DNA from: Gemmatimonadota bacterium
GTDB lineage: Bacteria; Gemmatimonadota; Gemmatimonadetes; Longimicrobiales; RSA9
Assembly: GCA_040905425.1 (NCBI GenBank)
Contig: JBBDRO010000019.1
Span: 1 to 21,446, forward strand
DNA: 21,446 nucleotides
Direction of reading: 5' to 3'
The notes below the pieces were generated by a model. It saw nothing but the letters and a program-made list of their open reading frames with translations. It did not search any database and had not been told where the DNA came from. How positions within the stretch are numbered: the first letter of the stretch is position 1; each line of letters begins with the position of its first letter. Of this stretch, positions 1-17,664 are shown one piece after another. The position numbers and the translations under genes were made by a program.

Positions 1-208
1 TCACCGCCTCCGGATAGCCCGTGCGTGCCAGGAGGCGGAGTGCGTTCGGCGCCGAAAAGACCCCCGGCCGGATGCTGTAGTCAAAACGAACGCCCGAGTC
101 CTCCACCTCCTCGCGGAAGTGCCCGGCCGTCCAGCGCTCCCTGAGCAGCTCCGCCAGCTCCACGTCGTGCGTACCAGGCAAAGGCGCCCCACCCGCCCCA
201 TGAACGCC
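1..208 (-). repeat. Diverged duplicate of the 3' end of the MutS-family ATPase gene (matches 8021-8232); runs off the left edge
   Basis: Manual alignment of 1-172 to 8021-8192 gives 13 mismatches in 172 nt. A 4-nt deletion follows (gtacca vs gtggctacca), and similarity ends at cccatgaacgcc (208/8232). The minus strand encodes THDVELAELLRERWTAGHFREEVEDSGVRFDYSIRPGVFSAPNALRLLARTGYPEAV. Confidence 0.95.
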
Positions 209-268
209 GCGGCGTGGCAAGCTGCATTCGAGGCGGCCTTCCTCGAGTGGGCCCACGGGGTAGCCGTA

Positions 269-766
269 GCCGCTGCCCTGCCAGGTGAGCATGTTCTCGA
301 CGGTGGCGGGCTCCAGCATGCCCCGGCGCTGGAAGAGGCGGAGGATGCGGCGCTGGCGGAGCCGCTGGAGGTGATGGGCGTCGTCGCTTGTGAGGTGGGT
401 GGCCTCGTGGAAGCGGACGGTGCCGGCCGGCTCCTCGCTGAAGAGGCCGTCCAGCACCACCACGTGGAAGTGGAAGTGTGGGTTCAGGGATGAGCCGAAG
501 CTGTGCAGGAAGGAGACGGCACCGGGGCGGGCGTCGGGCGCTGCGCCGGGGCTGGTGCGGCGGAGGCGGGTCTGGAGGGCACGGAGCAGGACGCGCAGGA
601 TGGCGCCGGCCAGCTGGGGATCGTGGGGCAGGTAGGGGCGCAGGCGCTTGGGCAGGGAGAGGACCCACTGACGGAGCGGGACGGGCGGCAGCACGGCGTC
701 GCTCAGGTGGGCGGCCACCTCGACCATCCGCCTGGCGCCGCATGAGGGGCAAGCGCCGCGGCCCTT
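269..766 (-). mobile_element. IS91/ISCR-family (HUH, rolling-circle) transposase, N-terminal-half fragment
   Basis: Manual translation of a frame missing from the ORF track (no stop inside the window): KGRGACPSCGARRMVEVAAHLSDAVLPPVPLRQWVLSLPKRLR...GAVSFLHSFGSSLNPHFHFHVVVLDG...MLTWQGSG. It has the Zn-binding CPSC, RQWVLSLP and HUH motifs. The catalytic-tyrosine region is absent. Confidence 0.9.
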
Positions 767-971
767 GGCGCGATCTGCCTTTGCTGCTGGCGCCATGCCA
801 ACCGCGGCCGGAACAGGGACCTGAGCCCCCTGCCCGTGGACGTGGAGGTGGAGCGGATCGCGAGCGGATGGCACCGGGCGCGCGAGCGCCAGCTGAATCG
901 AGCGGTGGATGTGTTGTGGGGGCAGATTGGTGGCGGGGGCGGGGGTGGCGGCGGTTGAGACTATGCAGGCG

Positions 972-1664
972 TCACTGAGCGTTAACGGCACTATCTCCCG
1001 TTGGACACAAATCTAGCACCGGACACGGCTCGCAGCGCGGGTTCCTACCGATGCAAAGCGACCTGCCATGGTGGACGAGGTTGACATGCAGTGAGTGCCG
1101 CAGGTCAACGGGGACGAGGTCTTGGAGAACATCGTGGGCAGCTTTCCGATCCACCCGTTCTGGTAGAAATCCGAGCCGGGCCATGACCCGTAGGCAGTGG
1201 CTGTCGACGGGGAAGACGGCGCGATCGAGCGAGTAAAGCAGAACGCAACGAGCCGTCTTCGGGCCGACCCCCGGCAGGGAGGTAAGAAACTCTTCGGCCG
1301 CTTCGGTCGTCATCCTGCGCAGCGGTAAGAGTGTGGCAGAACCAAAGGCCTCAATGATGCGTGAGATCTGAGCGGTAAGCCGCAGCCACTTCAATTCGGC
1401 CATACCACCCTGCTCCAGGATCTCCAGCACTGTGCTCTTGTTCATTTCAATCAGTTGGGACCATTCGCCGGCGCAGGCGTTACGAAGACGCTGGTAGGTC
1501 TTGGCGTAGAGACGTTCCTTCGTCCGGATAGAGAGCTGGATGAAAACGAGTTCATCCAACGGGTCTGACTTGTTGCCGAGGGGGCCGCTGTGATAAACGC
1601 ACTCGATCTCGACCGAGATCGTCCTTAGCCGTGCCTCTTCTGACGGTGAATGCCGGTGTGTCAC
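972..1664 (-). CDS. Endonuclease III (Nth)-family HhH-GPD DNA glycosylase with [4Fe-4S] cluster
   Basis: HhH motif LTSLPGVGPKTARCVLL (Lys retained), FPVDSHCLRV (catalytic Asp) and C-x6-C-x2-C-x5-C (CIGRNPRCEPCPVLDLC). The GTG start lies 2 nt after the mcrC stop. Confidence 0.9.
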   Translation of the reverse strand: MTHRHSPSEEARLRTISVEIECVYHSGPLGNKSDPLDELVFIQLSIRTKERLYAKTYQRLRNACAGEWSQLIEMNKSTVLEILEQGGMAELKWLRLTAQISRIIEAFGSATLLPLRRMTTEAAEEFLTSLPGVGPKTARCVLLYSLDRAVFPVDSHCLRVMARLGFLPERVDRKAAHDVLQDLVPVDLRHSLHVNLVHHGRSLCIGRNPRCEPCPVLDLCPTGDSAVNAQ

Positions 1665-1666
1665 GG

Positions 1667-2968
1667 CTATACCAATCCGTCCACCGCAGGCTGGCTGGCG
1701 GCCAGCACGAGTTCGTGGAGCCGCTCCACAGCATGTGCCCGGCGCTGGCTATCCCCCGATGCGAGACCGAACACATCAACGCTGCCCACAGTCAGTTCAC
1801 CCTGGCCGCCGGCAAGTCGGAAGCGGTTGCGCCACGACGATCTCCCACCTTCCCGCATCCAGGCGGCCTCGGGAAAGAGGAGGAGGCCGCGATCGACCGA
1901 ATGTGCGGCCATGTAGGTCGCGACCTGATAGACGTCGGTTGGGCTGAGGCCATGGGAGCCAGATCGACTGGGAAGCTGCTTCCACTTGGCATCCGCAACG
2001 AGGATCGGGTGCCCCCCGCCGTCGGTCAGCAGAAGGTCTGGTCGGAGCGACAGGGATGCCACTCCAGTGGATACCGAATGAAGGAGCCTCGGCCGGACTG
2101 GCCGCAGCGAGAGCTTCGTCCCTAGCGGCGGGCTGGAGGCAAGCGTTCTACGGATAAGGCGCTCGAACACATCATCGAGAGTGAACAGCAGACCGAAACC
2201 CTTCGCTTCACCGGTGCTGGTCGGAATTGGGGCCTGGCCTCGACGTATCAACACCGCAAGATCGACATACGGCCGCCACCGGTCCTCCTGCCTCGAGAGG
2301 CGCACTCTATGCGGCCGTAGGTGGTGAAGGGAAATTATCCGGGCCGCTCCCAACATGCGGTCACAGTGGTCCAGGGTCATGATATCTTGCCGCGATTCGG
2401 CCGCGTCCCGTAAGGCGGTGCCGAGCGCCCGCAGTACCCTGTTGAGGCCATTGTCGAACTGAAGCGGGGCATGCCTGATCGGGGTGACGTGCCTTTCCGA
2501 AGGTAGACTCGTCGCAAGGGCGCTGAAGCGGATTTTGCCCTTGATCTGGCTAAGGCGCTCCTCGCGTATGTGGTATCGCCGAGGCACCCCGAGCAGGAGG
2601 TCACGGTGCAGTTGTGATGAGAACGAGGAGATGAGGACTTGGAGGAGATGGTGGCGTCCGGAGGCGACCGCGGTACGGGAGATGAGCGGTCGCGGCACCA
2701 GCCCGGCACGATCGAGAAGGTCGAATAGAAATCGGCGGAGGTCGTCAGCCGACAGTTCCGCTGTACCTTTTGGAAGAATCTCGAGTTGGCACCACCCCAA
2801 ATCTACCACTCCAACGTAACCTCCTACGACAACGCCGCGCCCTGTGCGCCGGAGAAAATCCCCCGGGAGGCGAGCCGCAGACCTCATCAACCGGTCCCAT
2901 GCGGCGTTCGACACCGGAGTTTCGCTGGAAACAAGGCCGTGCTCGACCGCGGCGAAACGCCTCTTCAT
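1667..2968 (-). CDS. mcrC: McrC-family PD-(D/E)xK restriction nuclease subunit
   Basis: YVGVV...LEILPK N-terminal signature, LRPDLLL...ILVADAKWK catalytic motif and DVYQVATY. It lies directly downstream of mcrB. Confidence 0.9.
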   Translation of the reverse strand: MKRRFAAVEHGLVSSETPVSNAAWDRLMRSAARLPGDFLRRTGRGVVVGGYVGVVDLGWCQLEILPKGTAELSADDLRRFLFDLLDRAGLVPRPLISRTAVASGRHHLLQVLISSFSSQLHRDLLLGVPRRYHIREERLSQIKGKIRFSALATSLPSERHVTPIRHAPLQFDNGLNRVLRALGTALRDAAESRQDIMTLDHCDRMLGAARIISLHHLRPHRVRLSRQEDRWRPYVDLAVLIRRGQAPIPTSTGEAKGFGLLFTLDDVFERLIRRTLASSPPLGTKLSLRPVRPRLLHSVSTGVASLSLRPDLLLTDGGGHPILVADAKWKQLPSRSGSHGLSPTDVYQVATYMAAHSVDRGLLLFPEAAWMREGGRSSWRNRFRLAGGQGELTVGSVDVFGLASGDSQRRAHAVERLHELVLAASQPAVDGLV

Positions 2969-2977
2969 CGGAATGCC

Positions 2978-4297
2978 CTACACCGTCAACCGGACCAGTG
3001 CCTTCCGGAATCGCGAATCGTCCCACTGACGGGAGTCCGGGTTCCACCAGTCGGCTGCACGGGAGACGTGGAACCCATCTGGGTCAACCGCTAGGTCCTC
3101 TGGGAGAGAGGAGGGCTCAGGAATTTCGACGCCTTCAAGAAGCCCACCGCCAGTGACGAAGTCCGTCCTCCGCCACTCCCCGTGGAAATACTCCTGAAGA
3201 AGCGGAAGTACCTTCATCCTGATGATGGAAGCCATGGCTCGGGCCTTTCCGTCATCCGAAGCGTCCCATCCCGCTCGGAACCGGACCTCCTCCAAACTCG
3301 CTTCCATAAAGTCCGAGTGCCCGAGGCGTAAGTCGTGGGACATGAGGACGGTGATGCGGCGATTCATCTCTTCCAGAATGCCAGCCACCGGAATCCCACC
3401 GTAATCCGAGGGGCAGAGAGAGGGCTCGGGAGCGACCTCGACGAATCGGAAGCGGCGGCGAAGCGCGAGGTCGAACACCGAAAGGGACCGATCGGCGGTG
3501 TTCATCGTGGCGAGAATCGACAATCCCGCTGGGACCGAGAACGTAGTTCGCGAATACGGCAGGACCACCGAGCTCTCCTCGCGACCACCTTCGCGCTTGT
3601 CCAGTTCGATTAGCGTGATCAGCTCGCCGAAAACCCGCGATAGGTCGGCGCGATTGATCTCGTCGATGACGAGCACGACATCCTGGGTCTCCTCCTCAGC
3701 TGCTTGAAGTGCCTCGTAGACGGCCCGGAGATGGCTCGAGTTCGTGAGCAGGGTCGTGGGGAGGTTCGTCCTTCTAGATACGTCCTGGCGCTCTTCATTC
3801 CTCGGACCCGCCAGGGACAGCTGATCCGGCTCGATTTCCCTCGCTCGGAGGCGATTCAACGTCCAAAAGTCGGCATACTGCTCAAGGTAAGGCGAAACTG
3901 CATCCGCCCTGTCTACCTCGCTCCGTAGAACGACTCCACCGGCGTCGATCGCGACAACCTCGTACCGGTCGTTCCCTCCCAGCCGATCTCCAACGGACAC
4001 CCACGTCCGGCAAGCAGCGGACGCAGTTTTAAAGGGTCCGTCCACCACTCGGTAAACGATCTCGCCGCGTTCAGTCTCCTGAGGGCGAAAGCCCTCGACG
4101 AAGTCCTCGTACGAATATGACGGGTGAAATGTGACCCAGAAGATCCGCCCCTGGCGCACGAGTTCGTTGTGTCGAGCTCGGGCCTCCTGGGGATCCTCAG
4201 GAATCTGCCCATCGATAAGCCGCAAGGCTTCCCTCGCAGCTCGGTATGTCTTGCCGGTCCCGGGGGGGCCGTAGAAGACGATCATCTCAGCCGGCAT
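2978..4297 (-). CDS. mcrB: McrB-family AAA+ GTPase without an N-terminal DNA-binding domain
   Basis: Walker A GPPGTGKT, FHPSYSYEDFVEG, Walker B IDEINRAD, McrB signature MNTADRS and ALRRRF. A GAGGA RBS precedes the ATG, and an in-frame TGA shortly upstream rules out an N-terminal extension. Confidence 0.93.
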   Translation of the reverse strand: MPAEMIVFYGPPGTGKTYRAAREALRLIDGQIPEDPQEARARHNELVRQGRIFWVTFHPSYSYEDFVEGFRPQETERGEIVYRVVDGPFKTASAACRTWVSVGDRLGGNDRYEVVAIDAGGVVLRSEVDRADAVSPYLEQYADFWTLNRLRAREIEPDQLSLAGPRNEERQDVSRRTNLPTTLLTNSSHLRAVYEALQAAEEETQDVVLVIDEINRADLSRVFGELITLIELDKREGGREESSVVLPYSRTTFSVPAGLSILATMNTADRSLSVFDLALRRRFRFVEVAPEPSLCPSDYGGIPVAGILEEMNRRITVLMSHDLRLGHSDFMEASLEEVRFRAGWDASDDGKARAMASIIRMKVLPLLQEYFHGEWRRTDFVTGGGLLEGVEIPEPSSLPEDLAVDPDGFHVSRAADWWNPDSRQWDDSRFRKALVRLTV

Positions 4298-4388
4298 AGC
4301 GTTCCTCGCCTGCGTCAGTCAGAGGTCGTACCGTCCCATGAGGATGTGGTCCTTCGAGCAGTCGGGCCAGTGCGGAGTCCGGACACAT

Positions 4389-6773
4389 CTAAACTGCCAC
4401 CGCCTGGAGGTGTTCGTCCTGGCGGCGGGCTTGCAGGGTCAAGAGCTGCGCAACGCGGTCGGCCATCTGGTAGCTCAGTAGCGGGGGAACGGCGTTCCCG
4501 ATCACACGGAACGCGTCCACCAGACCAAGATGGCCGAAGGAGAAGGAGTCAGGGAACGATTGGACTCTGGCGGCTTCTCGGACGGAGAGGGAACGGTCCT
4601 CCCACGGGTGCACATAGGCGTACGTATCCTTGCCCATGTGCGTGACGATCGTCTTGCATGCCCGGCTCCCGTCTAGCCTCGCCAACCAGTCGCCGTGGTT
4701 ACCTTCACGTTTGCGAAGGTAGGTGTCCTTCAGCAGATGATGACCGAGTTCGCCAGGTAGCGGATCGATCGACTCCAGCAATAGTCGAATGCTCAGGTCC
4801 CCATCTACCCTCGAAGCGAGCTCATTGAGTTCTTCGGAGGTAATGTACTCGCCGAGAATCTTGCCATCGGCCGCACCGGCGGACATTAGCGCATGGATCG
4901 CTCGTGAAATCATGTTCAACGTAGGGCTGCTGTCACACCTGTAGTCCATCCACCGATTGCCCGGACCCATGAGGCCGAACCACTCGCGATCATCTCGGCG
5001 GTGGTCCCGAGCAACGTGGGAATCCACCGAGCCTTTGCCATGTCCCGCTGCTTGCGTGATCCAGCGCGCATATCGCGCGGCAGGATTGGAACCACCTCCG
5101 AATGTACCGGCGGACCCTAGATCGACAGCGCGGTCCAACCCGGCTCCTACGCCCTGTCCGCCAACTTCGAATGCGGGCGGGAGATCGTGTAGTGCGTGCC
5201 GGAGTGGCACCTCCTCTTGCACAGGCAACGTCAGGAGCCACTCGGATACATCCGCTGCCGCTTCCAGCGCGGCTACGGCCTCGAGCACGCCGGCCATAAA
5301 GAAACGGTCTCGTCTCTGCGGCACCATGTGGTCGGAGGCCATGATAGTCTTACTCGCTAGCCGATAGTTGAGTCCACCGTCCGATAGCTCCCTCACCGCC
5401 TCTGCAAGGATCTCGGTAGCGAGGAAGGTTCCGTCCGGCGTCTGCACCTCCGTCTGGAAGTGCTTGACGTTCTCGAACACGAATACAGGTGGCTGGAGTG
5501 CGCTGACGAACAGGACGTATTTCTCGAACAGCCGATTTCGGACATCGCCCGCCTCTGCGTCATAGTGCACGTGAACACGGTCGTCGCGGAGGCTCCGGAT
5601 CTTACCCCGGCCGATGCGGGAAAATCCCTGACACGGCGGGCCACCGAGCAGCAAAGCCACCCGCCGATCCCCCGTGTACGCTTCCAACATGCTCTCGTCA
5701 ACAGCCTTCTCCCGGAAAAGCAAGAATCGGAGTGAATCGCGCTGCGTGCGCCAATCCAGCCAGATTTGGCGAAGCGAGGGTACCGCCTCGAGAAACTCCA
5801 GAAACTGCCCAATGCGGCGGGCAGAGGAAGCGAGCTGTCCGCGACCACTTCCCTCAGCCTGTTTCCGGAGCCCTTGGGCCTCCCTGTCCCACCGTGCGGT
5901 CAGCTTACCACGAATCTCACGCTGCTGGCGTGACCAGCGGTTTTCGAATGCTCTCGGAAGGCGAAGCTCTTGGGTGGGCACGGCGCCGTCTTCGCGCCAG
6001 AGCATAGATCCGAGGTCAACAGAACGGGTGGAGGGGACGGGCAACCGCAAAGACTCATGGAAGCCCCGGACCGAAGTCTGACCAAGGGCCCGCGAGTCTA
6101 GATCTGCGTATGCCAACGAGAACGGCTCAATGCTTCTGATGGACTCGAACGCGTCGAGGAAGTCGCGGTCGAGCCTCGCGATCACGGCCTTGAACGTGTC
6201 AAGGGATATTGGCTTTCCCCGAGCCAGCAGCGCATCGATGTCTGGCTGCTCCTCTACCATTCGTAGATGATCGAGGTAGAAGGCACGCACTTCAGCCTCA
6301 TTGATGAAGTCGGAAAGGTCCACCTTCCGGGCCACTGGCGACCTGCTCCGGCAGTGATTGACGTTGAAGGTGTGGACCATTGCGTCCTCGACATCTACCG
6401 CTAAGACAGTTTCGAAAACCCGTCCATCTTCAACGAGGTCGAAGCCGAGTGACAGCCCTCCGCAACCGGAAAAGAGATCTACCACGCGCCACCGAGCGGT
6501 CTGGGTAGCAATAGGCCCCAGCTGGAGATTCTCAAGCGGCGATCGGATCCTAGACTCAGGCTGGCGATCGACCCGGGGGGGGTCAGCCTCAAGGCCGTCT
6601 AGCCAAATCCTGTACTTGGCCGCGGAATCGCTCCTCACATACGCCCCCGATAGGTGCCGGCTCAGAGAATCTACGGTGACACCGACCTCGGCGGCTGCAG
6701 CGCGAACGGCGAGTTCCTCCTCGCGCATACGCTGCCGAACGCGCGTCATCAGTGCCTCAATTGATCCTTCCAT
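4389..6773 (-). CDS. DNA (cytosine-5)-methyltransferase with N-terminal HTH and large insertion (794 aa from the likely start)
   Basis: Motif I DLFSGCGG, IV GGPPCQGFS, VI FVFENV, VIII PQRRDR, IX SVREAARVQSFPD and X IGNAVPP. The start is placed at ATG 6773 (GGAGG RBS upstream). The N-terminus AVRAAAAEVGVTVDSLSRHLSG resembles an XRE-type HTH. Confidence 0.93.
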   Translation of the reverse strand: MEGSIEALMTRVRQRMREEELAVRAAAAEVGVTVDSLSRHLSGAYVRSDSAAKYRIWLDGLEADPPRVDRQPESRIRSPLENLQLGPIATQTARWRVVDLFSGCGGLSLGFDLVEDGRVFETVLAVDVEDAMVHTFNVNHCRSRSPVARKVDLSDFINEAEVRAFYLDHLRMVEEQPDIDALLARGKPISLDTFKAVIARLDRDFLDAFESIRSIEPFSLAYADLDSRALGQTSVRGFHESLRLPVPSTRSVDLGSMLWREDGAVPTQELRLPRAFENRWSRQQREIRGKLTARWDREAQGLRKQAEGSGRGQLASSARRIGQFLEFLEAVPSLRQIWLDWRTQRDSLRFLLFREKAVDESMLEAYTGDRRVALLLGGPPCQGFSRIGRGKIRSLRDDRVHVHYDAEAGDVRNRLFEKYVLFVSALQPPVFVFENVKHFQTEVQTPDGTFLATEILAEAVRELSDGGLNYRLASKTIMASDHMVPQRRDRFFMAGVLEAVAALEAAADVSEWLLTLPVQEEVPLRHALHDLPPAFEVGGQGVGAGLDRAVDLGSAGTFGGGSNPAARYARWITQAAGHGKGSVDSHVARDHRRDDREWFGLMGPGNRWMDYRCDSSPTLNMISRAIHALMSAGAADGKILGEYITSEELNELASRVDGDLSIRLLLESIDPLPGELGHHLLKDTYLRKREGNHGDWLARLDGSRACKTIVTHMGKDTYAYVHPWEDRSLSVREAARVQSFPDSFSFGHLGLVDAFRVIGNAVPPLLSYQMADRVAQLLTLQARRQDEHLQAVAV

Positions 6774-7004
6774 CCCACCCCTCCAACCGAACAGATGCCG
6801 AACCTGGTAGCTTGGTAATGCACCACAATACAGCCTCAGAGGCCCCAGCGCATCCCCCTCGTAGCGCGGACCCCGTGTCGGCTCCTTCACTCCGGCGGCT
6901 TGGGTCCTCCTCCACTCAACCCGGATCCTGCGTTTGAGGCTGGTGAGCCGGCCTGAGGCCGTATAAGGGCCCTGCCCGTCGGTGGCGGTACTCTGATTGG
7001 TGTC

Positions 7005-7107
7005 CCCCGTGCTCCATGGGCGTGCCGGAGAGGCGGAGCAGCGCGCGAACGATGGATGAGCAGCCGTCGCTTGACGGTTCGTGATCGAGACGGAGTTCGG
7101 TGCGCAT
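7005..7107 (-). pseudogene. Possible truncated 5' remnant of a gene, reminiscent of VWA-domain protein N-termini
   Basis: A GGAGG RBS precedes the ATG, then MRTELRLDHEPSSDGCSSIVRALLRLSG, after which the sequence stops looking like protein. The family resemblance is from memory only. Confidence 0.3.
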
Positions 7108-7252
7108 GGCGGTGCCTCCCCTTCCGGTGATCGGGTTGAGGGAGGGAAGGTAGGCGGGGGGGTTGACAGCGTGATGTGCTGGAAGGGCGCGGACGGGCGC
7201 CGACGCGACGACAACTGGACACGGAACGGATGCCTGGAGAGAAGAGGCCGGG

Positions 7253-7276
7253 TTGTGGTAGTGATCACGACCACAA
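7253..7276. promoter_or_regulatory. 24-bp near-perfect palindrome, candidate operator
   Basis: TTGTGGT-A-GTGATCAC-G-ACCACAA has one mismatched pair. It can be extended by CGGG/CCCG across a 1-nt bulge. Confidence 0.5.
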
Positions 7277-7381
7277 ACCCGCAAATGTCCTGCGGCCCCG
7301 GCTCGGTGGCCCATCAGGACGGGCGGCTCGGTGCACGTCCGTTCAATCAGCTCGGCGAGCCAGTAGCCCTCGGCCCCCCCC

Positions 7382-7503
7382 CTACTTCACCCCAACCCCC
7401 ACGTTCATCCGGTTCCGCAGCACCGCCCGTCCCCCTCCGACCGCTCCCGGAGCATGCCGTCCATCACCCGCTGCACCTCACGCTTCTGCTCCTCGGAAAG
7501 AAA
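7382..7503 (-). pseudogene. 3' remnant of a probable class I SAM-dependent methyltransferase gene, frameshifted and truncated at the IS end
   Basis: FLSEEQKREVQRVMDGMLRERSEGDG / AVLRNRMNVGVGVK* resembles the C-termini of small SAM methyltransferases (from memory). It has no start codon and abuts the oriIS. Confidence 0.45.
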
Positions 7504-7507
7504 TGAA

Positions 7508-7860
7508 AGAAATAGGAATTTCAACCCACCTCTTCGTCCTCACCCAAGGAGGGCGGGCTCCTCGGCGGAGGCAAGCGTGCCAAGCGTGCTGTCGGTCGGG
7601 GATCGAAGCTGCGAGCGTTGGCCATGCGCCATGGCGGATCGGGCACGGCGTGATGAAGCGCGGGGTCGGGGGGGTGGGGACGGGTCAGGTGCGGGGTGGA
7701 AGCGTGCCCGGCGGCTCGGGCCCGAGAGGCGCAGGCGCGGATCCGCCCTGAGCCGCCTCAGCTCTGGCTCTGATCGAAGTCGAAGTCCGGGATGGGGTTC
7801 GGCTCGGCGGCACCCTCACCCCACGCAACATGCGTTGCGCGGGGACCCCGAGCGAAGGCG
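7508..7860 (-). mobile_element. IS91/ISCR-family 3' end: degenerate transposase C-terminus plus oriIS
   Basis: The minus strand reads ARGP...AEPNPIPDFDFDQSQS* (stop 7758-7760), typical of these transposase tails. About 250 nt downstream, GGGTTGAAATTCCTAT (7527-7512) matches the IS91/ISCR oriIS pattern (GxTTGAAxTTCCTAT). Confidence 0.75.
7819..7844. repeat. REP-like GC-rich hairpin
   Basis: CCCCACGCAAC-ATGC-GTTGCGCGGGG forms an 11-bp stem with one mismatch (a G-T wobble on the minus strand). Confidence 0.5.
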
Positions 7861-7985
7861 GGCACCTAGTCGAGGTGGTCAGGCGCCTCGGCGTCCAGGG
7901 GGAGCCCCGCGAACCATGCCGGTCCACGGGGCGCGCTGAGCAGCCACCGTCGCTTGCGCGGGCAGGATATCGGCGGCGGCCGTGG

Positions 7986-9422
7986 CTACCGCGCCTCGTA
8001 GATCTCGAACGCCCGCGCCATCACCGCCTCCGGATAGCCCGTGCGTGACAGGATGCGGAGTGCGTTCGGCGCCGAGGAGACGCCCGGCCGGATGCTGTAG
8101 TCAAAGCGGACGCCCGCCTCCTCCACCTCCTCGCGGAAATGCCAGGCGGTCCAGCGCTCCCCGAGCAGCTCCGCCAGCTCCACGTCGTGCGTGGCTACCA
8201 GGCAGAGGTGGCCCCCGTGTCCCATGAACGCCAGGACCCCAGCGGAGGCGGCAATGCGTTCGCGGGTGTTGGTGCCGCGAAACAGCTCGTCCAGGATGAA
8301 CAGGTGCGGGCCGCGCTCGGCCGCCGCGGACAGGAGACCGCCCATCACTTCAGCCTCCACCATGAAGTAGCTGCGGCCCTCCAGCAGATCGTCCTGCCGG
8401 TCGATGAAGGTGCGTACCTCCACCAACGGACCCCGCCAGGCACGGGCAGGGCAGGTGGCCAACGCCTGGCCCAGAACCGCCGCCACGCCCATGGCACGCA
8501 GGTACGTGGTCTTGCCCGCCATGTTGGAACCGGTGATGAGCAGCGAGCGGCCCTCCGGCCGAAGGTCATTCGGGACCGCGTCCGCCAGCAGCGGGTGGTA
8601 GACGCCCTCACCCAGGAGCTGCGTGGCATCGAGCCCCCCATCCGTTGGCGCGGCCGACGCTTCGGGCACGCACCAGAAGGGGAGGTCCTCCCGCAGCTCC
8701 GCCACCGCGCAGAACGCGTCCAGGCGGCCCGCCTGTTCGAACACCGCCACCATGGCTTGCCGGTTGCGCCGGATCAGTTCGATGCTGAACACGAAGGCGT
8801 TCACGTCTAGGAGGAAGAGCAGGTTGGCGTAGGCCATCAGCGTATCCGCCAGCTCATTGCCGCCGGCCTCGTGCACCAACGAGCTGGTGAGGCGTCCCAG
8901 CCACCGGAGCGATCGGCAGCGCGTGGCCAGCTCACCCACCGCCGGGTCCTCCGCGAGCAGAGGTACCTCCCCCAGCCGCCGGCCGGCCGCCAGCAGGCCG
9001 CGCAGGGCCGCCAGTGGGGGCAGCAGGTGCTGCACGTTCGGCCCGTAGTAGCCCTGCACAACAATGTTGATGGCCACGATGGGCAGGAGCAGCAGGAAGA
9101 GACGCGGCGCCTCCGCGATGGCCTGGCGTGCGGCGGGCCGCTCCGCCAGGCGCCGCACGCCAGCGTCACGCTCCGCCAACTCGGTCCAATCCCGGGCGGG
9201 GTGACGCAGCAGGTCGTAGAGCACCTGCTGGCCCACACCGCTGGACGCGCGATCGATGCGCGCGAAGACCGCGTCCATGTCCAGGTCCCGCCAGGTGCGC
9301 TCGTCCAGGCTACCCGGGGCGGCCGGGCTCCGGAGACGCGCATACAAGTCAATGTCATCGATCTGGCCGGGGAGGGCCCGGAGTTCGCGGCGTGCGCGCA
9401 GTGCCGCCAGCACACTACGCAC
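7986..9422 (-). CDS. MutS-family ATPase (domain V only, membrane-associated MutS-like paralog)
   Basis: LLITGSNMAGKTTYLR, SYFMVE, LFILDELFRGTN, VATHD and FDYSIRPG are present, plus a hydrophobic stretch LFLLLLPIVAINIVV. There is no mismatch-recognition domain. The start is uncertain; GTG 9422 avoids overlap with the upstream gene. Confidence 0.85.
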   Translation of the reverse strand: MRSVLAALRARRELRALPGQIDDIDLYARLRSPAAPGSLDERTWRDLDMDAVFARIDRASSGVGQQVLYDLLRHPARDWTELAERDAGVRRLAERPAARQAIAEAPRLFLLLLPIVAINIVVQGYYGPNVQHLLPPLAALRGLLAAGRRLGEVPLLAEDPAVGELATRCRSLRWLGRLTSSLVHEAGGNELADTLMAYANLLFLLDVNAFVFSIELIRRNRQAMVAVFEQAGRLDAFCAVAELREDLPFWCVPEASAAPTDGGLDATQLLGEGVYHPLLADAVPNDLRPEGRSLLITGSNMAGKTTYLRAMGVAAVLGQALATCPARAWRGPLVEVRTFIDRQDDLLEGRSYFMVEAEVMGGLLSAAAERGPHLFILDELFRGTNTRERIAASAGVLAFMGHGGHLCLVATHDVELAELLGERWTAWHFREEVEEAGVRFDYSIRPGVSSAPNALRILSRTGYPEAVMARAFEIYEAR

Positions 9423-9498
9423 AATGGGCAGGGCGCGTATAGGTGACAGAAACCCGCGCGGGGGGCTATGCGTGGGACTCACCGCACCAGCGAACGTT

Positions 9499-10446
9499 TC
9501 ACAGCAGCGTCTCCAACGCCGGCCCCAGCTCCGGATAGCGCCACTCGAAGCCGGACTCCTGGAGCTTCCGCGGCACCACGCGCGCGCCGGCCAGGATGAG
9601 CTCGTCCGCCATGTCGCCGGGCGCCAGCCGGGCGGCAAAGGAGGGCAGGCGGAAGAAGGCGGGGCGCTCCAGCGCGTCCGCCAGATGGCGCGTGAACTCG
9701 TCATTCGTGACCGGGTGGGGGGTGGTGACGTTCACGGGGCCGGCCAGCTCGGGGTGCGCGAGCACGTGGCTCATGGCGCGCGGCATGTCCGGCAGCGCGA
9801 TCCACGACACCATCTGGCGGCCGCTGCCGAGCGGACCACCCAGTCCCAGCCGGAAGAGCGGCTTCAGCGTGCCGAGCAGGCCGCCCTCTCCGCTCATGAC
9901 CAGCCCGAAGCGCAGGTTGGCCACCCGGATGCCTGCATCGGTGGCGGGCGCGGCGGCGGCCTCCCAGGCGTCCACCACCCGGGCCAGGAAGCCGCGTCCC
10001 CGCGCGCTGGACTCGTCCACCGGTTCGGCGGGCGGCCGATCACCGTAATAATTGACCCCCGAAGCCGTCAGCAGCACCGCGGGCGGGCGCTCCAGCCCCG
10101 CCAGCGTCTCCGCCAGGAAGGCGGTGCCGGCCACGCGGCTCTCCCGGATGCGGCGCTTCTTGGCATCCGTCCACAGGCCGAAGATGGACTCGCCGGCCAG
10201 GTGCACCACCACGTCCAGGCCCTCCAGCGCCGCGCTCTCGATGGTACGCTCGCGCGGGTGCCAGACCGCCACCCGCTCGCCAATGCCCGCCTCGCTGAAG
10301 GAACGCACCAGGCGCGTGACCTCGTGGCCCTGCTTGCGGAAGTGGTCCAGCACGGCCGTGCCCACCAGCCCGCTCGAACCCGTCACCGCCACGCGCAGGG
10401 GGCGCTCGCCGCCGGATGACTGGCTGCTGCTGGTGGAGGTTCTCAC
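9499..10446 (-). CDS. TIGR01777-family NAD-dependent epimerase/SDR (YfcH-like)
   Basis: VAVTGSSGLVG Rossmann motif, VVHLAGESI, WEAAA, LRFGLVMS, GSGRQMVSWI and GPVNVTTPHPVTN. The start is uncertain. Confidence 0.9.
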   Translation of the reverse strand: MRTSTSSSQSSGGERPLRVAVTGSSGLVGTAVLDHFRKQGHEVTRLVRSFSEAGIGERVAVWHPRERTIESAALEGLDVVVHLAGESIFGLWTDAKKRRIRESRVAGTAFLAETLAGLERPPAVLLTASGVNYYGDRPPAEPVDESSARGRGFLARVVDAWEAAAAPATDAGIRVANLRFGLVMSGEGGLLGTLKPLFRLGLGGPLGSGRQMVSWIALPDMPRAMSHVLAHPELAGPVNVTTPHPVTNDEFTRHLADALERPAFFRLPSFAARLAPGDMADELILAGARVVPRKLQESGFEWRYPELGPALETLL

Positions 10447-13485: not shown

Positions 13486-13570
13486 CCCACAGGCTGAGCG
13501 GAGCGCACTCGCTGAGGGCTCCGGCTCGCTGAGAGGTAGACGCCAGTCCGGGCAACGGGAGCCCGATCGT

Positions 13571-13990
13571 TCAGGATTCTCGTATTGCGGCCTCCGCCCA
13601 CCCGGCAAATTCCTTCAACTCATTCAGTAGCTCGAGCCCACGGGATAACGGTGCGTGGCGCGCACCGTACTGTGCTTCATCCTTCCGCCTCAGAATCCTG
13701 TTCAGGCGCTTCTGCTGGGCATTCGGCAGGCGGTTTCCAAGCACGTCGCGAAGCGCCTTCACAGCAGCGGCGTGGTCCTTTTGGTCTACGCGCCCTCCGT
13801 AATAGGCGGTGAGAGCGTCGGTGTAGGCAATCGCGGAGTTGACGACATGGGAGATGATCGGGTTCGCGTTGGCGCCTGACTCGGCCCGCATCACCGCCGC
13901 CTCTGCAGCCTCCAGATAGGCGCGGGCGTTGTTGAGGCGCCCACTTGCAAACGGACCGTCTGCCGGCCTGGCGGGTCCAGTCCTTGTCAT
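13571..13990 (-). CDS. HEPN-domain protein (putative toxin)
   Basis: Helical ARAYLEAAE...NSAIAYTDAL...KDHAAAV...RRKDEAQYG pattern. The start overlaps the MNT stop (ATGA). Confidence 0.7.
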   Translation of the reverse strand: MTRTGPARPADGPFASGRLNNARAYLEAAEAAVMRAESGANANPIISHVVNSAIAYTDALTAYYGGRVDQKDHAAAVKALRDVLGNRLPNAQQKRLNRILRRKDEAQYGARHAPLSRGLELLNELKEFAGWAEAAIRES

Positions 13991-14673
13991 GGCCGCTCAG
14001 ATGTCCCCTGGCGATTTTGTTTCCGGCGCATGTGAGCCGCCAGTTGCGCCGGATCCGGCCCGTCAAGCGCAATCGCCTCGCGCGTCACGTTGGTCCACCA
14101 GGAATCTCCAGCGCTCAGTCGAAGGACGTCATCCAGGCTTATGGCAACCACCGACGCACTGAATCCAAGAGTCTCTTCCGATCTTGCTAACCTCTCCCGG
14201 ATTTCGTCGGCGGCTCGATCCACCGCCATATCCCCCCCGGGGATTACAACGGCCACATCGACGTCACTTCCTGGAGTATCCTCCCTGCGGGCTACGCTGC
14301 CATACAGCCAGACCGCCTCCGGTGGCGGATCAGCTCTCGCTGCTGTCCGGATTGCGTCCGCAATCTCCCCGAACCGCTGCGCCTCCACGTGAAAAAGCCC
14401 ATCCAGTACTGCGTAGAGGGGATGTATCCGGCGCGCCCGGTGCGACGGATGGCCGCCAACGCCAACGGACTCAACCACTTCGAGAGCCGCGAGGCCTCGA
14501 AGAATGCGCGTGGTGTGCTGGCGGGAGAGGCCGACGCGCTTCGCGATGGAAGGAGCGCTCAGTTCGCCGCCATGGCGGAACAATTCACGCAGAACCCGCA
14601 CATTCCCCTCGGAGGAGAAGATGGCGCTCAGAGGAAAGCGCAGTGCGCTCTGGCTGGTGCTGGGAGGCGGCAT
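13987..14673 (-). CDS. Winged-HTH plus minimal nucleotidyltransferase (MNT), putative antitoxin
   Basis: N-terminal HTH (LSAPSIAKRVGLSRQHTTRILRGL) and a GS-x10-DxD motif (LYGSVARREDTPGSDVDVAVV). ATG 14673 is preferred because ATG 14712 lies inside the operator palindrome. Confidence 0.85.
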   Translation of the reverse strand: MPPPSTSQSALRFPLSAIFSSEGNVRVLRELFRHGGELSAPSIAKRVGLSRQHTTRILRGLAALEVVESVGVGGHPSHRARRIHPLYAVLDGLFHVEAQRFGEIADAIRTAARADPPPEAVWLYGSVARREDTPGSDVDVAVVIPGGDMAVDRAADEIRERLARSEETLGFSASVVAISLDDVLRLSAGDSWWTNVTREAIALDGPDPAQLAAHMRRKQNRQGTSERP

Positions 14674-14754: not shown

Positions 14755-17664
14755 CTACCGCACCGCCCCCGCCGCGCCCGACCGCCGCGGATCCGCCCCC
14801 GCCACCGCCCGTCCGCCGTCGATCGTGACGGCCGCCCCGTAGCCCATGCGTAGCTCGCCCGTGAGGGAGATGCGCCGGAATTCGTGACCCATGGCCTCCA
14901 GCCGGGCCAGCACCTCGGGGTCGAAGCCGTCCTCGATCTGCGCGGCGCCGCGACCACTCGGCAGCATGCGCGGCAACTCCAGCGCCGCCTGCGGGCCCAG
15001 CTCCAGGTCCATGATGCCCACCGCCAGTGCATAGACCGCCGCCGTGATCCACGCATTGCCCGCCGCGCCGATGGCCGCCAGCGGCCGCCGGTCCCTGCCC
15101 GTGCCCTCGAAGAGCAGCGTCGGCGCGATCACGGTCCCCACGCGCGCGTAGGCCAGCCGCGCGTTCGGCGACTCCGGATCGGAGGAGTAGGAGCGCGCCT
15201 TGTCATTGTAGAGGAAGCCGAGCCCCGGAGTGACATAGAAGTTGCCGCCCCAGGTGCCGAGCGTTTGCGTCACGGCCACCATGTTGCCGCGCCCGTCGGC
15301 CACCGCGAAGGCCGTGGTGCCGCTGGCCGGACAGTCCCACGTGTAGATGCCCACCTCACAGCCATCTTCCTCCTCCTCGTAAGCGACGAGGCCACGCACC
15401 TCCGCGGCCGGCGCGGCCGCGTTCGCGGCGTGCGCCGGGCGCGTGGCGCGCGCGCCGGATGCCGGCGCGGGGACGTCGCTTTCAAGATCCCGTGGGGGAT
15501 AGCCCGCGCAGTCGGGGCGCACGCCGTCCGAGGCCCGCTCGGGGTTGAAGCACTCCCAGCGGGCCGCCGCGGTGTCCTTGCTCTCGAAGGGCGAGTAGTC
15601 CACGGGGAAGAGGTCGGGATCGGCCATGCGGCCGCCGGTGGAGGGCGCCAGCCGCCACGCCTCCATGAGCGCATGCACGCTGCGCGCGTCCCCGGTCCAG
15701 GAACGGGGCGCGTTGGTGCGCTCGAGCAGGTTCAGCTTGCCGGTGAGCAGGGCGCCGCCGGTGGTGGGCGGGGCGCTGGCAAAGACGGTGTAGTCACCCC
15801 GGTAGGTGGTCTGCACGGGCCGGCGCTCGCGCGCGATGTAGCGGCGCATGTCCTGCCGGCTGATGGGATTGCCGTGGGCTGCGAGGTCGGCCACGAGGCG
15901 GCGCGCCACCTCACCCTCGTAGAAGGCGCGGCCGCCGTGCTCGGCCACCTGGCGGAGCGTCCAGGCCAGGTCGGGATTGCGCAGCGTGTCACCAGGCTCG
16001 AGGGGGCTACCGTCACGGAAGAACAGAGCGCGGCTGGACGGCCATTCGGCGTAGCGCTCCTGCTCGCGGCGCAGCGTGGTGGTGAACGCCTCGTCCAGTT
16101 CGAAGCCGTCCTGTGCGTAGCGGATGGCCGGGGCCAGCAGATCGGCCCACGCCACGTTGCCGCTGCCGTACCGGCGGAAGGCCAGCTCCATGCCCGCCAC
16201 GGTACCGGGCACGTTGACCAGTGTGGGCCCTTCCAGCTCGTCGGGCAGGCCGGGCTCGGCGCCCGCCGCGGCGCCCGCCGGCACGCGCGTCATGAACTCG
16301 ATGGCGGTGGGCCGCTCCATGTCCTCCAGGTAGAGCACCATCTGTCCGTAGCCGCCCATGCCGCTGGCATCCGGCTCCACCACGCCCAGGGCAAAGGAGA
16401 CGGCAATGGCCGCTTCCACCACGTTGCCCCCGGCGCGGAGCACCTCGAGGCCGGCCGCCGTGGCCAGCGGATGGGCGCTGGAGACAGCCGCGCGGCCCGA
16501 CGCCGCGCGGCGCAGCGGGGGGCGCTCGGCCATCATGCGGTGCAGGACCCGTTCAAAAGCCTGCGTGTCCTCGGCCTCCACGGCGTCCTCGCGGTAGCGC
16601 TGGCCGAGCTGGCGCCAGCGCTCCAGGGCGTCGGCGGGGGCGCGGGTGGCTCCAGCCACGGCGGTGACGTCCGCCGGCGCGGCGGGGCCGCCGGCCGCCC
16701 CAAAATAGGTGGCGGCCACGCGGTGCCAGGCGCGGTCGAAGGCGGCGGCGTTGGCGGCCTGGCGGTCGGAGGTCACGCTGAGGGTCACGACGCGGGGCGG
16801 TGCCGGCGGCGCGGGCGCGGCCACGAAGCGGAGATTGCCGCCATCGTCGCGGAAGGCATCCCCCGCCGCACGATCACCCTGGCGGTCGGGGTCGCCGTTG
16901 TAGCCGCCGCCGCCCGGCGCCGGGTCGGCCACGGCCAGACGGGTCCCGTCGGGCGACCACGCCGGCTCACCTGCCTCGGTGCTGGCCAGCGTCAGGTAGT
17001 TGCCCGCCGCGTCGGTCACGCGGATGCCGTCATTGCCGCTGAAGGCCAGGCGGCCATCGGTGGACCAGGCGGGTGCGGCTGCGTTCTGCTCGGTGTGCAG
17101 GGGGCGCGCGCTGCCGTCTCGGGGACGCACGTGCAGGGTGGCGCTCCGGCCGCGCTCCGCCACGTACGCAATGCGCTGGCCGTCCGGGGAGAAGGCCGGC
17201 GCGCGCTCCGCGCCCGGCTCCGCCGTGAGCTGCCGCGGCGCGCCGCCGGGCGGCAGCAGCCAGAGATCGGCGCCGGCCCCGGAGCCGCGCACGTAGACGA
17301 TGGCGTCGTCGGGTGCCACGCTGGGCTCGGTCTCCGGCTCCGGCGCGCGGGTCATCCGCTCGGGCTCGCCGGAGGTGCCCGTGCGCCACAGGTCCACGCT
17401 GCCCGCGCGGTCGGATGCAAAGACCACCGCGCCGTCGGGCGTCCACGCCGGATCCCGGTCCCAGGCAGGGCCGCGGGTGAGCTGCTCCGCGCGCCCGGGC
17501 AGGCCGTCGGCGCCGGGGTGCAGAATCCACAGGTCCCCGCGCACCGCCACCGCGATGCGGCCGTCCGCCGCGTAGGCCGGCGCGCGTGCCTGGCGGAGGA
17601 TGTCGAAGTCGGCGGGCGCGGTCTGCTGAAACGCGGCCGCCAGGGCCAGTGCGGTGACGAACAT
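14755..17664 (-). CDS. Gamma-glutamyltransferase-family Ntn hydrolase fused to an N-terminal TolB/PD40 beta-propeller
   Basis: PD40 repeats (DPAWTPDG, APAFSPDG, EPAWSPDG) precede the GGT motifs AVSSAHPLATAAG, GGNVVEAAIA, SGMGGYG, VPGTVAG, nucleophile G-TTAFAVADGRGN and ADPRR. A GGAGG RBS precedes a hydrophobic N-terminus. Confidence 0.88.
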   Translation of the reverse strand: MFVTALALAAAFQQTAPADFDILRQARAPAYAADGRIAVAVRGDLWILHPGADGLPGRAEQLTRGPAWDRDPAWTPDGAVVFASDRAGSVDLWRTGTSGEPERMTRAPEPETEPSVAPDDAIVYVRGSGAGADLWLLPPGGAPRQLTAEPGAERAPAFSPDGQRIAYVAERGRSATLHVRPRDGSARPLHTEQNAAAPAWSTDGRLAFSGNDGIRVTDAAGNYLTLASTEAGEPAWSPDGTRLAVADPAPGGGGYNGDPDRQGDRAAGDAFRDDGGNLRFVAAPAPPAPPRVVTLSVTSDRQAANAAAFDRAWHRVAATYFGAAGGPAAPADVTAVAGATRAPADALERWRQLGQRYREDAVEAEDTQAFERVLHRMMAERPPLRRAASGRAAVSSAHPLATAAGLEVLRAGGNVVEAAIAVSFALGVVEPDASGMGGYGQMVLYLEDMERPTAIEFMTRVPAGAAAGAEPGLPDELEGPTLVNVPGTVAGMELAFRRYGSGNVAWADLLAPAIRYAQDGFELDEAFTTTLRREQERYAEWPSSRALFFRDGSPLEPGDTLRNPDLAWTLRQVAEHGGRAFYEGEVARRLVADLAAHGNPISRQDMRRYIARERRPVQTTYRGDYTVFASAPPTTGGALLTGKLNLLERTNAPRSWTGDARSVHALMEAWRLAPSTGGRMADPDLFPVDYSPFESKDTAAARWECFNPERASDGVRPDCAGYPPRDLESDVPAPASGARATRPAHAANAAAPAAEVRGLVAYEEEEDGCEVGIYTWDCPASGTTAFAVADGRGNMVAVTQTLGTWGGNFYVTPGLGFLYNDKARSYSSDPESPNARLAYARVGTVIAPTLLFEGTGRDRRPLAAIGAAGNAWITAAVYALAVGIMDLELGPQAALELPRMLPSGRGAAQIEDGFDPEVLARLEAMGHEFRRISLTGELRMGYGAAVTIDGGRAVAGADPRRSGAAGAVR

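Follow-up and report, generated by a model that had tools for sequence, protein, structure and literature searches.

A putative methyltransferase-associated McrBC-type restriction-modification cassette with a candidate Vsr-analogue glycosylase in a Gemmatimonadota genome

The DNA studied here, hereafter the window, is the entire contig JBBDRO010000019.1 (21,446 nucleotides, nt) of a 4.12-Mb, 96.7%-complete Gemmatimonadota genome (assembly GCA_040905425.1), and the system in question is a cassette of four genes at positions 972 to 6773 that encode a C5 cytosine DNA methyltransferase, an McrB-like motor, an McrC-like nuclease and an endonuclease III (EndoIII)-like DNA glycosylase. With a probability of about two in three, this cassette is a horizontally acquired, methyltransferase-associated McrBC-type restriction-modification (R-M) module that includes a repair glycosylase as an analogue of Vsr. 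Its core is best described as methylase, McrB and McrC together with a repair accessory, the latter being Vsr in most of the related loci and an EndoIII-like glycosylase here. Thus, the glycosylase most likely repairs damage caused by the methylase, and does not constitute a new arm of phage defence.

In the mechanism proposed, the methyltransferase, fused to a helix-turn-helix (HTH) domain, would mark host sites with 5-methylcytosine (5mC), its controller-protein-like XRE domain probably also regulating the operon, and the McrB-like hexameric AAA+ motor together with the McrC-like nuclease would cleave unmarked DNA, as in LlaJI, LlaI and BsuMI. The glycosylase would act outside the restriction machinery, removing T, and probably also U or oxidised derivatives, where they face G at methylase sites after deamination of 5mC or C, and sparing the host from mutations that the cassette itself would cause. 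From the co-inheritance of the methylase with an McrBC-type nuclease we infer a methylation-protected restriction of unmarked DNA, and likewise infer the glycosylase substrate, the regulatory role of the HTH domain and the mode of DNA recognition considered below.

The four genes and their products

The genes of the cassette are listed below with their lengths in amino acids (aa) and the E-values of their profile matches.

4389..6773, minus strand: C5 cytosine DNA methyltransferase, 794 aa (PF00145, 4.1e-37, in three stretches; TIGR00675)
2978..4297, minus strand: McrB-like AAA+ motor, 439 aa (AAA_5, 5.6e-14; NCBIfam McrB, 9.9e-31)
1667..2968, minus strand: McrC-like PD-(D/E)xK nuclease subunit, 433 aa (PF10117 McrBC, 2.5e-43, residues 48-366)
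972..1664, minus strand: EndoIII-family HhH-GPD [4Fe-4S] DNA glycosylase, 230 aa (HhH, 1.2e-05; NF053634, 4.5e-35; nth, 3.6e-19)

These four long open reading frames (ORFs) all lie on the minus strand with intergenic gaps of 91, 9 and 2 nt, and the coordinates reproduce those of the four co-oriented genes reported in a first-pass annotation of the same DNA. The drop in guanine-cytosine (GC) content relative to the flanks that it had described is also recovered, with values of 0.58-0.63 over positions 1001-7000 against 0.67-0.78 across most other parts of the window. Domain matches of the four genes are far above chance according to their Pfam and NCBIfam profile E-values, and residue conservation in the alignments indicates that the catalytic motifs are intact in all four enzymes, namely methylase, McrB, McrC and glycosylase.

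The frame over the methylase gene is open as far as 7274; the ATG at 6773 was chosen as its start, a GGAGG-like site being found a few bases upstream, and the orthologs all align from this position. The methylase, encoded by the sole PF00145 gene of its genome, scores 110 bits against TIGR00675 (dcm), over the cut-off of 100.65. Motifs I, IV (PPCQ), VI (ENV), VIII and X are kept in the six orthologs, with F101/G103/C104/G105/G106, P379-P380-C381-Q382, E434-N435-V436, Q486/R488/R490 and G759-N760/V762 invariant in 6/6. The structure model of this protein is poor (mean predicted local distance difference test, pLDDT, of 49.6, from a 6-row alignment), its usable parts being the HTH and a helical insertion, and a wide fold search carried out with it matched residues 1-64 only. 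Residues 1-61 are modelled as an N-terminal XRE-type HTH, with fold matches to XRE regulators and R-M controller proteins (2o38, Z 8.7; C.AhdI, Z 8.0; C.Esp1396I, Z 7.8); nonetheless, Z values of 7-8 are usual for so small a fold, and these matches therefore show fold and not function. The fused XRE domain probably autoregulates the operon. No short inverted repeats, and no operator-like repeat, were found in 6740-7000. Between motifs I and IV, and between Pfam model positions 56 and 62, the methylase contains ~217-220 extra residues that are modelled as long helices (pLDDT 60-91) and conserved in 6/6 orthologs, and its target-recognition region is enlarged.

Only 4 residues of McrB precede its strand 1 and Walker A, so that it has no N-terminal DNA-binding domain, and it also lacks the N-linker. 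Likewise, 114 of the 120 best McrB matches listed have 433-519 aa, a length with no room for a DNA-binding domain, the remaining six having 581-713 aa. The closest PDB sequences are those of T. gammatolerans McrB (TgMcrB, 5e-43) and E. coli McrB (EcMcrB, 3.2e-28), and the structure model (pLDDT 86) matches the folds of TgMcrB (E 4.7e-23), EcMcrB and, more weakly, BsuMI YdjA-YdiS (9a5m_B, E 1.4e-11), with identities of 26-27% to TgMcrB versus 17% to 9a5m_B. Scores against the NCBIfam models are 106.9 bits versus a cut-off of 637 for McrB and 35.7 versus 338 for McrC, both being equivalog cut-offs. Walker A (G10-T17), Walker B (D212-E213), the loop M265-N266-T267/D269 and the pair R280-R282 are invariant in 25/25 McrB relatives. 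Considering that the N-linker confers GTP specificity, a motor without it may be nucleotide-promiscuous, by analogy with LlaI.R2 and BsuMI.R2. Regarding the McrC encoded 9 nt away, P310-D311, D326 and K328 are invariant in 9/9 aligned relatives.

Between Walker A and Walker B, McrB bears an insertion (roughly residues 94-204) that adds ~45 residues relative to TgMcrB and is modelled as three strands plus helices. An Atlas search made with this part of the protein gave no recognisable fold for it (best feature score 0.81; template modelling scores, TM, of <=0.56 on short stretches; weak PilP-like rows). PF28529 was considered as its identity and rejected, this family being 'McrB_lid', which is annotated on relatives. 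In the window this insertion has an acidic composition (net charge -6, isoelectric point 4.75; family median 0), which does not suggest a DNA-binding surface. A complex prediction of McrB with the helical insertion of the methylase (residues 140-372), run without controls, gave a score of 0.00, which speaks neither for nor against a contact. Three statements of the first-pass annotation agree with these observations: that McrB has no N-terminal domain; that inserted domains are present, both methyltransferase and McrB bearing inserted regions; and that a separate recognition subunit is not visible, a Pfam scan and the comparison with five related loci having revealed no further conserved gene within the cassette, and the stretch 6774-7985 having no Pfam match.

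The public record of the glycosylase gene gives a protein of 195 aa, its first residue being number 36 of the 230-aa reading; homologs align from residue 4-20 onward, which makes the 230-aa form, with its GTG at 1664, the more likely one. K136, D154 and the cysteines C204/C211/C214/C220 (C-X6-C-X2-C-X5-C) are invariant in 13/13 glycosylase homologs, fused forms included. Among PDB sequences, matches were obtained to D. radiodurans EndoIII-1 (4.1e-29, residues 30-221), E. coli EndoIII (3.1e-14), ROS1 (4.7e-12) and Mig (1kea, 3e-06), and the protein remains under the curated cut-offs of both TIGR01083 nth (69.2 of 211.7 bits) and NF053634, the model for DR2438 (121.2 of 400). Since the EndoIII-type lysine is kept, this position being a Tyr in Mig, the protein is probably a bifunctional glycosylase/lyase, as judged from its sequence. 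The single PADLOC match of the glycosylase is to a 221-position 'Type II nicking endonuclease' model, residues 127-221 aligning to positions 117-214; the Mig structure 1kea has 221 residues and aligns glycosylase residues 126-221 to 116-214, so that the PADLOC model would be derived from Mig. Elsewhere in the cassette PADLOC returned generic MTase_II/DrmMII/DruM matches, weak REase_II matches for McrB and none for McrC. Two other HhH-GPD relatives are found elsewhere in the genome.

Loci of related methylases and glycosylases

Searches with the methylase, with one genome per species, returned three loci, and a query with an McrC alignment added two more, apart from finding Luteimonas again (L173 = L001). 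The methylase orthologs share 44-58% identity over their full length, and the neighbouring McrB and McrC 37-45% and ~31-38%, respectively. Methylase, McrB and McrC occur together in 4/5 of these other methylase loci (L001, L172, L174 and L003), a linkage that holds across phyla, with gene order and orientation varying among them. Thus, the variant R-M pairing of McrBC homologs with a C5 methyltransferase suggested by the first-pass annotation is borne out, and of its four-gene set the first three genes are co-conserved, with Vsr, and not a glycosylase, as the accessory in the other four genomes.

Vsr adjoins the methylase in 5/5 orthologous loci (Pfam, 76-90 bits, cut-off 27), whereas PF03852 has no match in the window or in the whole 96.7%-complete genome, control genomes having scored in the same search. 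Hence, Vsr and glycosylase are mutually exclusive beside the same methylase family. L001 (Luteimonas kalidii), L172 (a Comamonadaceae metagenome-assembled genome, MAG) and L174 (Comamonas guangdongensis) show McrB and McrC followed by the convergent Vsr and large methylase; Vsr lies between methylase and McrC in these three loci, while in the window the glycosylase comes after McrC. In L001 the Vsr gene overlaps the 3' end of the methylase gene, as in dcm-vsr. A HATPase_c gene beside the cassette is common to L001 and L172 only, and is therefore not core. L003 (an Actinomycetes MAG) presents Vsr, methylase, a helicase gene, a split McrC and McrB.

L002 (a Longimicrobiales MAG) contains at 6462-10352 an EcoRII-C-like nuclease (5.5e-11), Vsr and the methylase (58% identity, insertion included), with no McrB or McrC in 7.9 kb upstream or in the 1.1 kb downstream to the contig end. 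The large HTH-methylase family is thus shared among different nuclease partners.

Two further features of L003 were observed. In its segment 10488-17382 a 1,154-aa protein with RNase_H_2 and SF1-helicase domains is encoded between methylase and McrC, the latter being spread over two frames, and its McrB frame, open over 698 aa, extends ~200 residues ahead of the AAA+ domain, the database protein P0103 having 675 aa.

Control loci with other McrB relatives, 80 from genomes and 79 from metagenomes, were scanned in six frames, these McrBs being mostly long and having N-terminal regions. The scan used custom hidden Markov models (HMMs) built from 12 C5 methylase, 7 glycosylase, 1 Vsr, 2 McrC and 2 McrB sequences. 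A C5 methylase was found at 1/159 control loci (L062), which points to a methylase link specific to the clade of the window, and neither the glycosylase (0/159) nor Vsr (0/159) was found at any of them.

Regarding distribution, at E <= 1e-80 the McrB of the window was found in its own genome only, among 401 sampled from the host phylum, and the McrBs of its relatives used as queries gave 0/254 and 0/401 genomes in two other samples. A tblastn search of plasmid records gave no McrB match at 1e-60, and both the metagenome scan and an alignment-based genome scan returned distant McrBs only, by the generic McrB motif. This distribution, together with the flanks described below, fits sporadic horizontal transfer of the cassette.

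The glycosylase query gave eight loci in species genomes, and an alignment query one in viral contigs (L175). At E <= 1e-25 the glycosylase clade counts 472 proteins, longer fused forms not included. A C5 methylase accompanies the homolog (36-59% identity) in 8/9 of these other loci, as the neighbouring gene in three of them and as a fusion partner in five. HhH-GPD and DNA_methylase domains share one ORF of 581-660 aa in L005, L006, L007 and L008 (Pfam), and in L011 the N-terminus of a 518-aa methylase ORF matches the C-terminal half of the glycosylase (custom HMM and tblastn). Glycosylase homolog and C5 methylase are neighbouring genes in L004, L010 and the viral L175. In L009 (36% identity) it has valS/folC housekeeping surroundings and no methylase. 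Partner nucleases vary at the glycosylase loci (Z1; HATPase_c_3; a 1,820-aa DEAD-MZB helicase plus a PD-(D/E)xK protein; SNF2), and neither McrB nor McrC was detected by tblastn and custom HMMs at any of the nine.

Four of these loci (L006, 170-8674; L007, 164-8677; L008, 702-7693; L010, 19-8666) share a recurrent arrangement of a DEAD/Helicase_C/MZB (DUF1998-like) helicase of <=1,823 aa, a PD-(D/E)xK nuclease and the glycosylase-C5 methylase fusion, a set resembling a helicase-nuclease restriction module, DISARM-like or of another kind, whose methylase brings its own repair function. In L175 (IMG/VR, 17-6569) the C5 methylase and glycosylase homolog overlap by ~35 nt and are followed by two ORFs without Pfam match and an SNF2-family helicase.

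Closer relatives appear on metagenomic contigs. Matches listed on contigs of 278,262 nt comprise McrB (P0004, 73%), McrC (P0127, ~55%) and glycosylase (P0132, 64%), those on contigs of 27,392 nt comprise P0005, P0126 and P0138, and those on contigs of 13,631 nt comprise McrC (P0125) and glycosylase (P0137). On contigs of 2,598 nt an McrC (P0122, 81%) and a glycosylase (P0130, 74%) are listed, two genes that would nearly fill such a contig. One contig of 14,218 nt carries McrB (P0002) and McrC (P0123), with no glycosylase among the matches listed. These data suggest a clade at 55-81% identity that keeps the McrBC-glycosylase order, co-location being deduced from equal contig sizes only.

Relation to known systems and competing readings

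Methyltransferase-associated McrBC systems are already known (LlaJI, LlaI, BsuMI), and the 'undescribed four-gene defence system' initially put forward for the cassette is not supported. Features of non-canonical McrBC R-M systems found in the window are an McrB-like NTPase with the MNT[A/S]D[R/K]S loop, an adjoining McrC and a cognate, co-conserved methylase; the DNA-binding module of the LlaJI/LlaI/BsuMI type, be it fused or a separate R1, is absent from it. LlaJI.R1 bears an N-terminal site-specific DNA-binding domain, without counterpart on the McrB of the window. The LlaJI system of L. lactis comprises the McrB-like R1, the McrC-like R2 and two m5C methylases, and restricts unmethylated DNA (PMC1459862); it resembles the cassette in that McrBC homologs are tied to C5 methylation, and differs in its two methylases versus one here.

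LlaI, with its three-gene organisation R1/R2/R3, and BsuMI use McrB-like motors without a DNA-binding domain that function in methylase-protected, site-specific restriction (10.64898/2026.08.31.748284). Both LlaI (L. lactis pTR2030) and BsuMI (B. subtilis) share with the cassette a motor without fused DNA-binding domain or N-linker, an McrC-like PD-(D/E)xK nuclease and the methyltransferase(s), and the HTH controller of LlaI has a counterpart here, fused to the methylase. On the contrary, they have a separate DNA-binding R1 protein, for which the cassette has none, and the cassette is set apart by a motor nearer to canonical McrBs and with an internal insertion, by a single large HTH-fused C5 methylase and by a Vsr or glycosylase accessory. 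A census of McrBC systems flags the methyltransferase-associated ones as large clades and describes GTPase domains as often having insertions 'likely encoding specificity domains' (10.1101/2023.07.31.551357). Canonical Type IV McrBC, represented by the systems of E. coli and T. gammatolerans, has in common with the cassette the McrC nuclease and, on the motor side, an AAA+ core with MNTAD consensus loop and arginine pair; the cassette does not belong to this class, having neither a modification-reading N-terminal domain nor an N-linker, and being linked to a cognate methylase.

Concerning the accessory, one parallel is found in Dcm-Vsr and in m5C R-M systems with a V gene, in which a repair gene accompanies the C5 methylase, Vsr itself being present in the five orthologous loci. 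Vsr genes go with C5 methylases and repair the T:G mismatches that arise from 5mC deamination. The product in the window is an HhH-GPD base-excision glycosylase and not a PD-(D/E)xK-like nicking endonuclease, so that the likeness is one of role and not of family. A second parallel is Mig, with Mig.MthI reportedly placed beside M.MthTI on plasmid pFV1. Mig (1kea) and the protein in the window have in common the HhH-GPD [4Fe-4S] fold, the catalytic Asp (D154 here) and the linkage to a C5 methylase, and differ in that their sequences are distant (matched over the C-terminal half only) and in the lysine K136, a Tyr in Mig. Mig enzymes counter 5mC deamination (PMC1636421), a precedent that indicates that an HhH-GPD glycosylase can fill the role of Vsr, and the substitution Y126K turns MIG into a lyase (PMC9945173). 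In REBASE nomenclature, the prefix 'V.' is set aside for Vsr genes (PMC4081073). No description of an HhH-GPD-C5 methylase fusion, or of a bacterial glycosylase as substitute for a V gene, was found in a literature coverage that was partial.

D. radiodurans EndoIII-1 (DrEndoIII-1, DR2438; 4unf, 8a5c) is the closest solved relative of the glycosylase and has the same Lys, Asp and Fe-S cluster; it is reported as a mostly monofunctional glycosylase on thymine glycol and single-stranded DNA (PMC10523315). It is a chromosomal repair enzyme, whereas the protein in the window, with 121 of the 400 bits required by the DR2438 model, belongs to a methylase-linked clade. EndoIII-like or glycosylase proteins are also found in defence, in END nucleases, whose inactivated EndoIII domains sense hypermodified DNA, and in Brig1, and R.PabI is a restriction glycosylase (PMC4081073).

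The 'dedicated base-excision arm' tied to McrC that the first-pass annotation had envisaged does not agree with the fact that the glycosylase follows the methylase (8/9 loci, none with McrBC) and appears at none of the 159 control McrB loci. The same observations, together with Vsr, a repair nuclease, being the accessory in 4/4 other complete cassettes, and with a catalytic Lys and Asp that are invariant, unlike in END sensors, make improbable a genuine four-component defence in which the glycosylase is an effector excising bases of the invader or a sensor that reads non-self bases and passes the DNA on to McrBC, thus providing the recognition module that McrBC lacks, even though the 2-nt gap between McrC and glycosylase, the lack of any other recognition module in the cassette, the McrC and glycosylase relatives that apparently share four metagenomic contigs (one of them of 2,598 nt) and the glycosylase-fold precedents of END sensors and R.PabI would favour it. 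The narrower option of an END-type sensor was rejected as the main interpretation, the catalytic residues being intact and the homologs following methylases. Most improbable is that an ordinary EndoIII paralog, acting on oxidised pyrimidines, hitch-hiked on the island as its fourth gene without functional tie to the other three: the action of its best characterised relative, DrEndoIII-1, on thymine glycol, the EndoIII-like Lys, Asp and Fe-S motifs and the valS/folC context of the 36%-identical homolog agree with it, but eight of nine homolog loci are linked to a C5 methylase, five by fusion, the genome has two other HhH-GPD relatives already, and the protein scores far under the nth and DR2438 cut-offs.

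That the island merely juxtaposes two unrelated units, one being a Dcm-like methylase that stands alone apart from its repair gene and the other a conventional, modification-dependent Type IV McrBC directed against foreign modified DNA, is in our view very unlikely. The AAA+ domain of McrB does have canonical McrBs, those of T. gammatolerans and E. coli, as its nearest relatives, and the methylase occurs without McrBC in L002, but the three genes recur together in four genomes of different phyla and in different orders, McrB has no modification-reading domain, a C5 methylase is near only one of 159 other McrB loci, and the glycosylase lies downstream of McrC within the same tight operon. Rather unlikely is also a Type III-like organisation, which would refine the explanation preferred here while leaving the glycosylase a repair enzyme, and in which the insertion or recognition region of the methylase would act as the specificity subunit that docks on the McrB hexamer and steers cleavage to unmethylated sites. 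It would be consistent with (i) a family-specific helical insertion of ~220 residues that is kept in 6/6 methylase orthologs, (ii) a family-specific McrB insertion, acidic in the window (net -6), that resembles a protein-docking surface more than a DNA-binding one, and (iii) the lack of an R1-like gene in a cassette whose methylase is co-conserved with McrBC in four other genomes. The helical insertion of the methylase is thus a candidate docking element, but L002 has both methylase and insertion without McrBC in reach, and the insertion is therefore not tied to McrBC. In a broader form, an McrBC R-M architecture devoid of a dedicated DNA-binding module, with targets chosen either by the methyltransferase, as in Type III systems, or by a lesion-reading glycosylase or Vsr, appears unlikely; if true, a base-flipping enzyme would license the McrBC motor-nuclease, and the swap from Vsr to glycosylase would also exchange the sensor.

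The explanation preferred here, an McrBC-type R-M module with a Vsr-analogue repair glycosylase, also has several points that weigh against it. The glycosylase is nearer to D. radiodurans EndoIII-1 than to Mig (4.1e-29 versus 3e-06), and the retained lysine, together with a nearest studied relative that acts on thymine glycol, implies that its substrate could be oxidised pyrimidines and not T:G. The gene is translationally coupled to McrC (2-nt gap) and not to the methylase, and the four contigs that McrC and glycosylase relatives apparently share, by equal sizes only, would suit a role with McrBC. The lack of a recognition part, either fused as in LlaJI or separate as the R1 of LlaI and BsuMI, means that the likeness to LlaI leaves target finding unexplained. 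Finally, the control HMMs were small (12, 1 and 7 sequences for C5 methylase, Vsr and glycosylase) and blind to N6/N4 methylases, and many of the control contigs were short.

The analysis separates two things, a rare methylase-linked McrBC clade and a widespread, unstudied clade of EndoIII-like glycosylases that travels with C5 methylases, or fused to them, in place of Vsr. From the second follows the prediction of a naturally occurring glycosylase of the lyase type that acts on T:G or U:G and is linked to a methylation motif. Genes of this kind now receive the annotation 'endonuclease III' and might be taken for effectors by defence finders. The first raises the question of how sites are found by an McrBC motor whose DNA-binding part is missing both as a fusion and as a separate protein.

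Flanks of the cassette and other genes of the window

The cassette is bordered by the following features.

341..760 (from matched residues), minus strand: IS91-family (Y2) transposase remnant (Y2_Tnp, 9.1e-07; Zn_Tnp_IS91, 2.7e-04)
1..208, no strand: direct repeat, left copy, cut by the contig end; a copy of the 3' end of the MutS_V gene
8021..8232, no strand: direct repeat, right copy, within the intact MutS domain V gene (7986-9704, minus strand; MutS_V, 2.6e-26)
6774..7985, no strand: 1.2-kb stretch without recognised gene, from the methyltransferase start to the MutS_V gene; no Pfam family in its two longest ORFs

Y2_Tnp matches the transposase remnant at profile positions 1-65 of 183 only, and the frame concerned, in the ORF 2-991 of the minus strand, runs in frame into the duplicated 3' end of the MutS_V gene. 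The duplication comprises the repeat families D1 (1-172 versus 8021-8192, 92%) and D4 (166-208 versus 8190-8232, 79%), and is also apparent at protein level. The mobile island first proposed for this region is partly supported, by the IS91 remnant and by the direct repeat 1-208/8021-8232, but its left border lies beyond the contig end. The 3' end of the MutS_V gene seems to have been either the insertion site of the island or the point through which it recombined. This gene (7986-9704, minus strand) encodes a 572-aa protein with MutS domain V alone, the other MutS domains being absent, and its last ~70 codons are those copied at the left end of the contig.

The stretch 6774-7985 presumably holds the promoter region of the operon. 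It has no similarity to the loci L001, L002, L003, L172 or L174, and a promoter and terminator scan of it remained at chance level.

Farther along the window, the minus-strand segment 13571-14712 coincides with a patch of lower GC (0.63-0.64 at 13501-14500) and encodes a 241-aa protein with a MarR-like HTH and a nucleotidyltransferase domain (NTP_transf_2, 1.1e-06). A 139-aa ORF without Pfam match overlaps this nucleotidyltransferase gene by 4 nt, a layout that recalls toxin-antitoxin pairs of the MNT/HEPN type. It is followed at 14755-17664, also on the minus strand, by the gene of a 969-aa protein that combines PD40 beta-propeller repeats (8.5e-33) with a gamma-glutamyltranspeptidase domain (6.1e-103).

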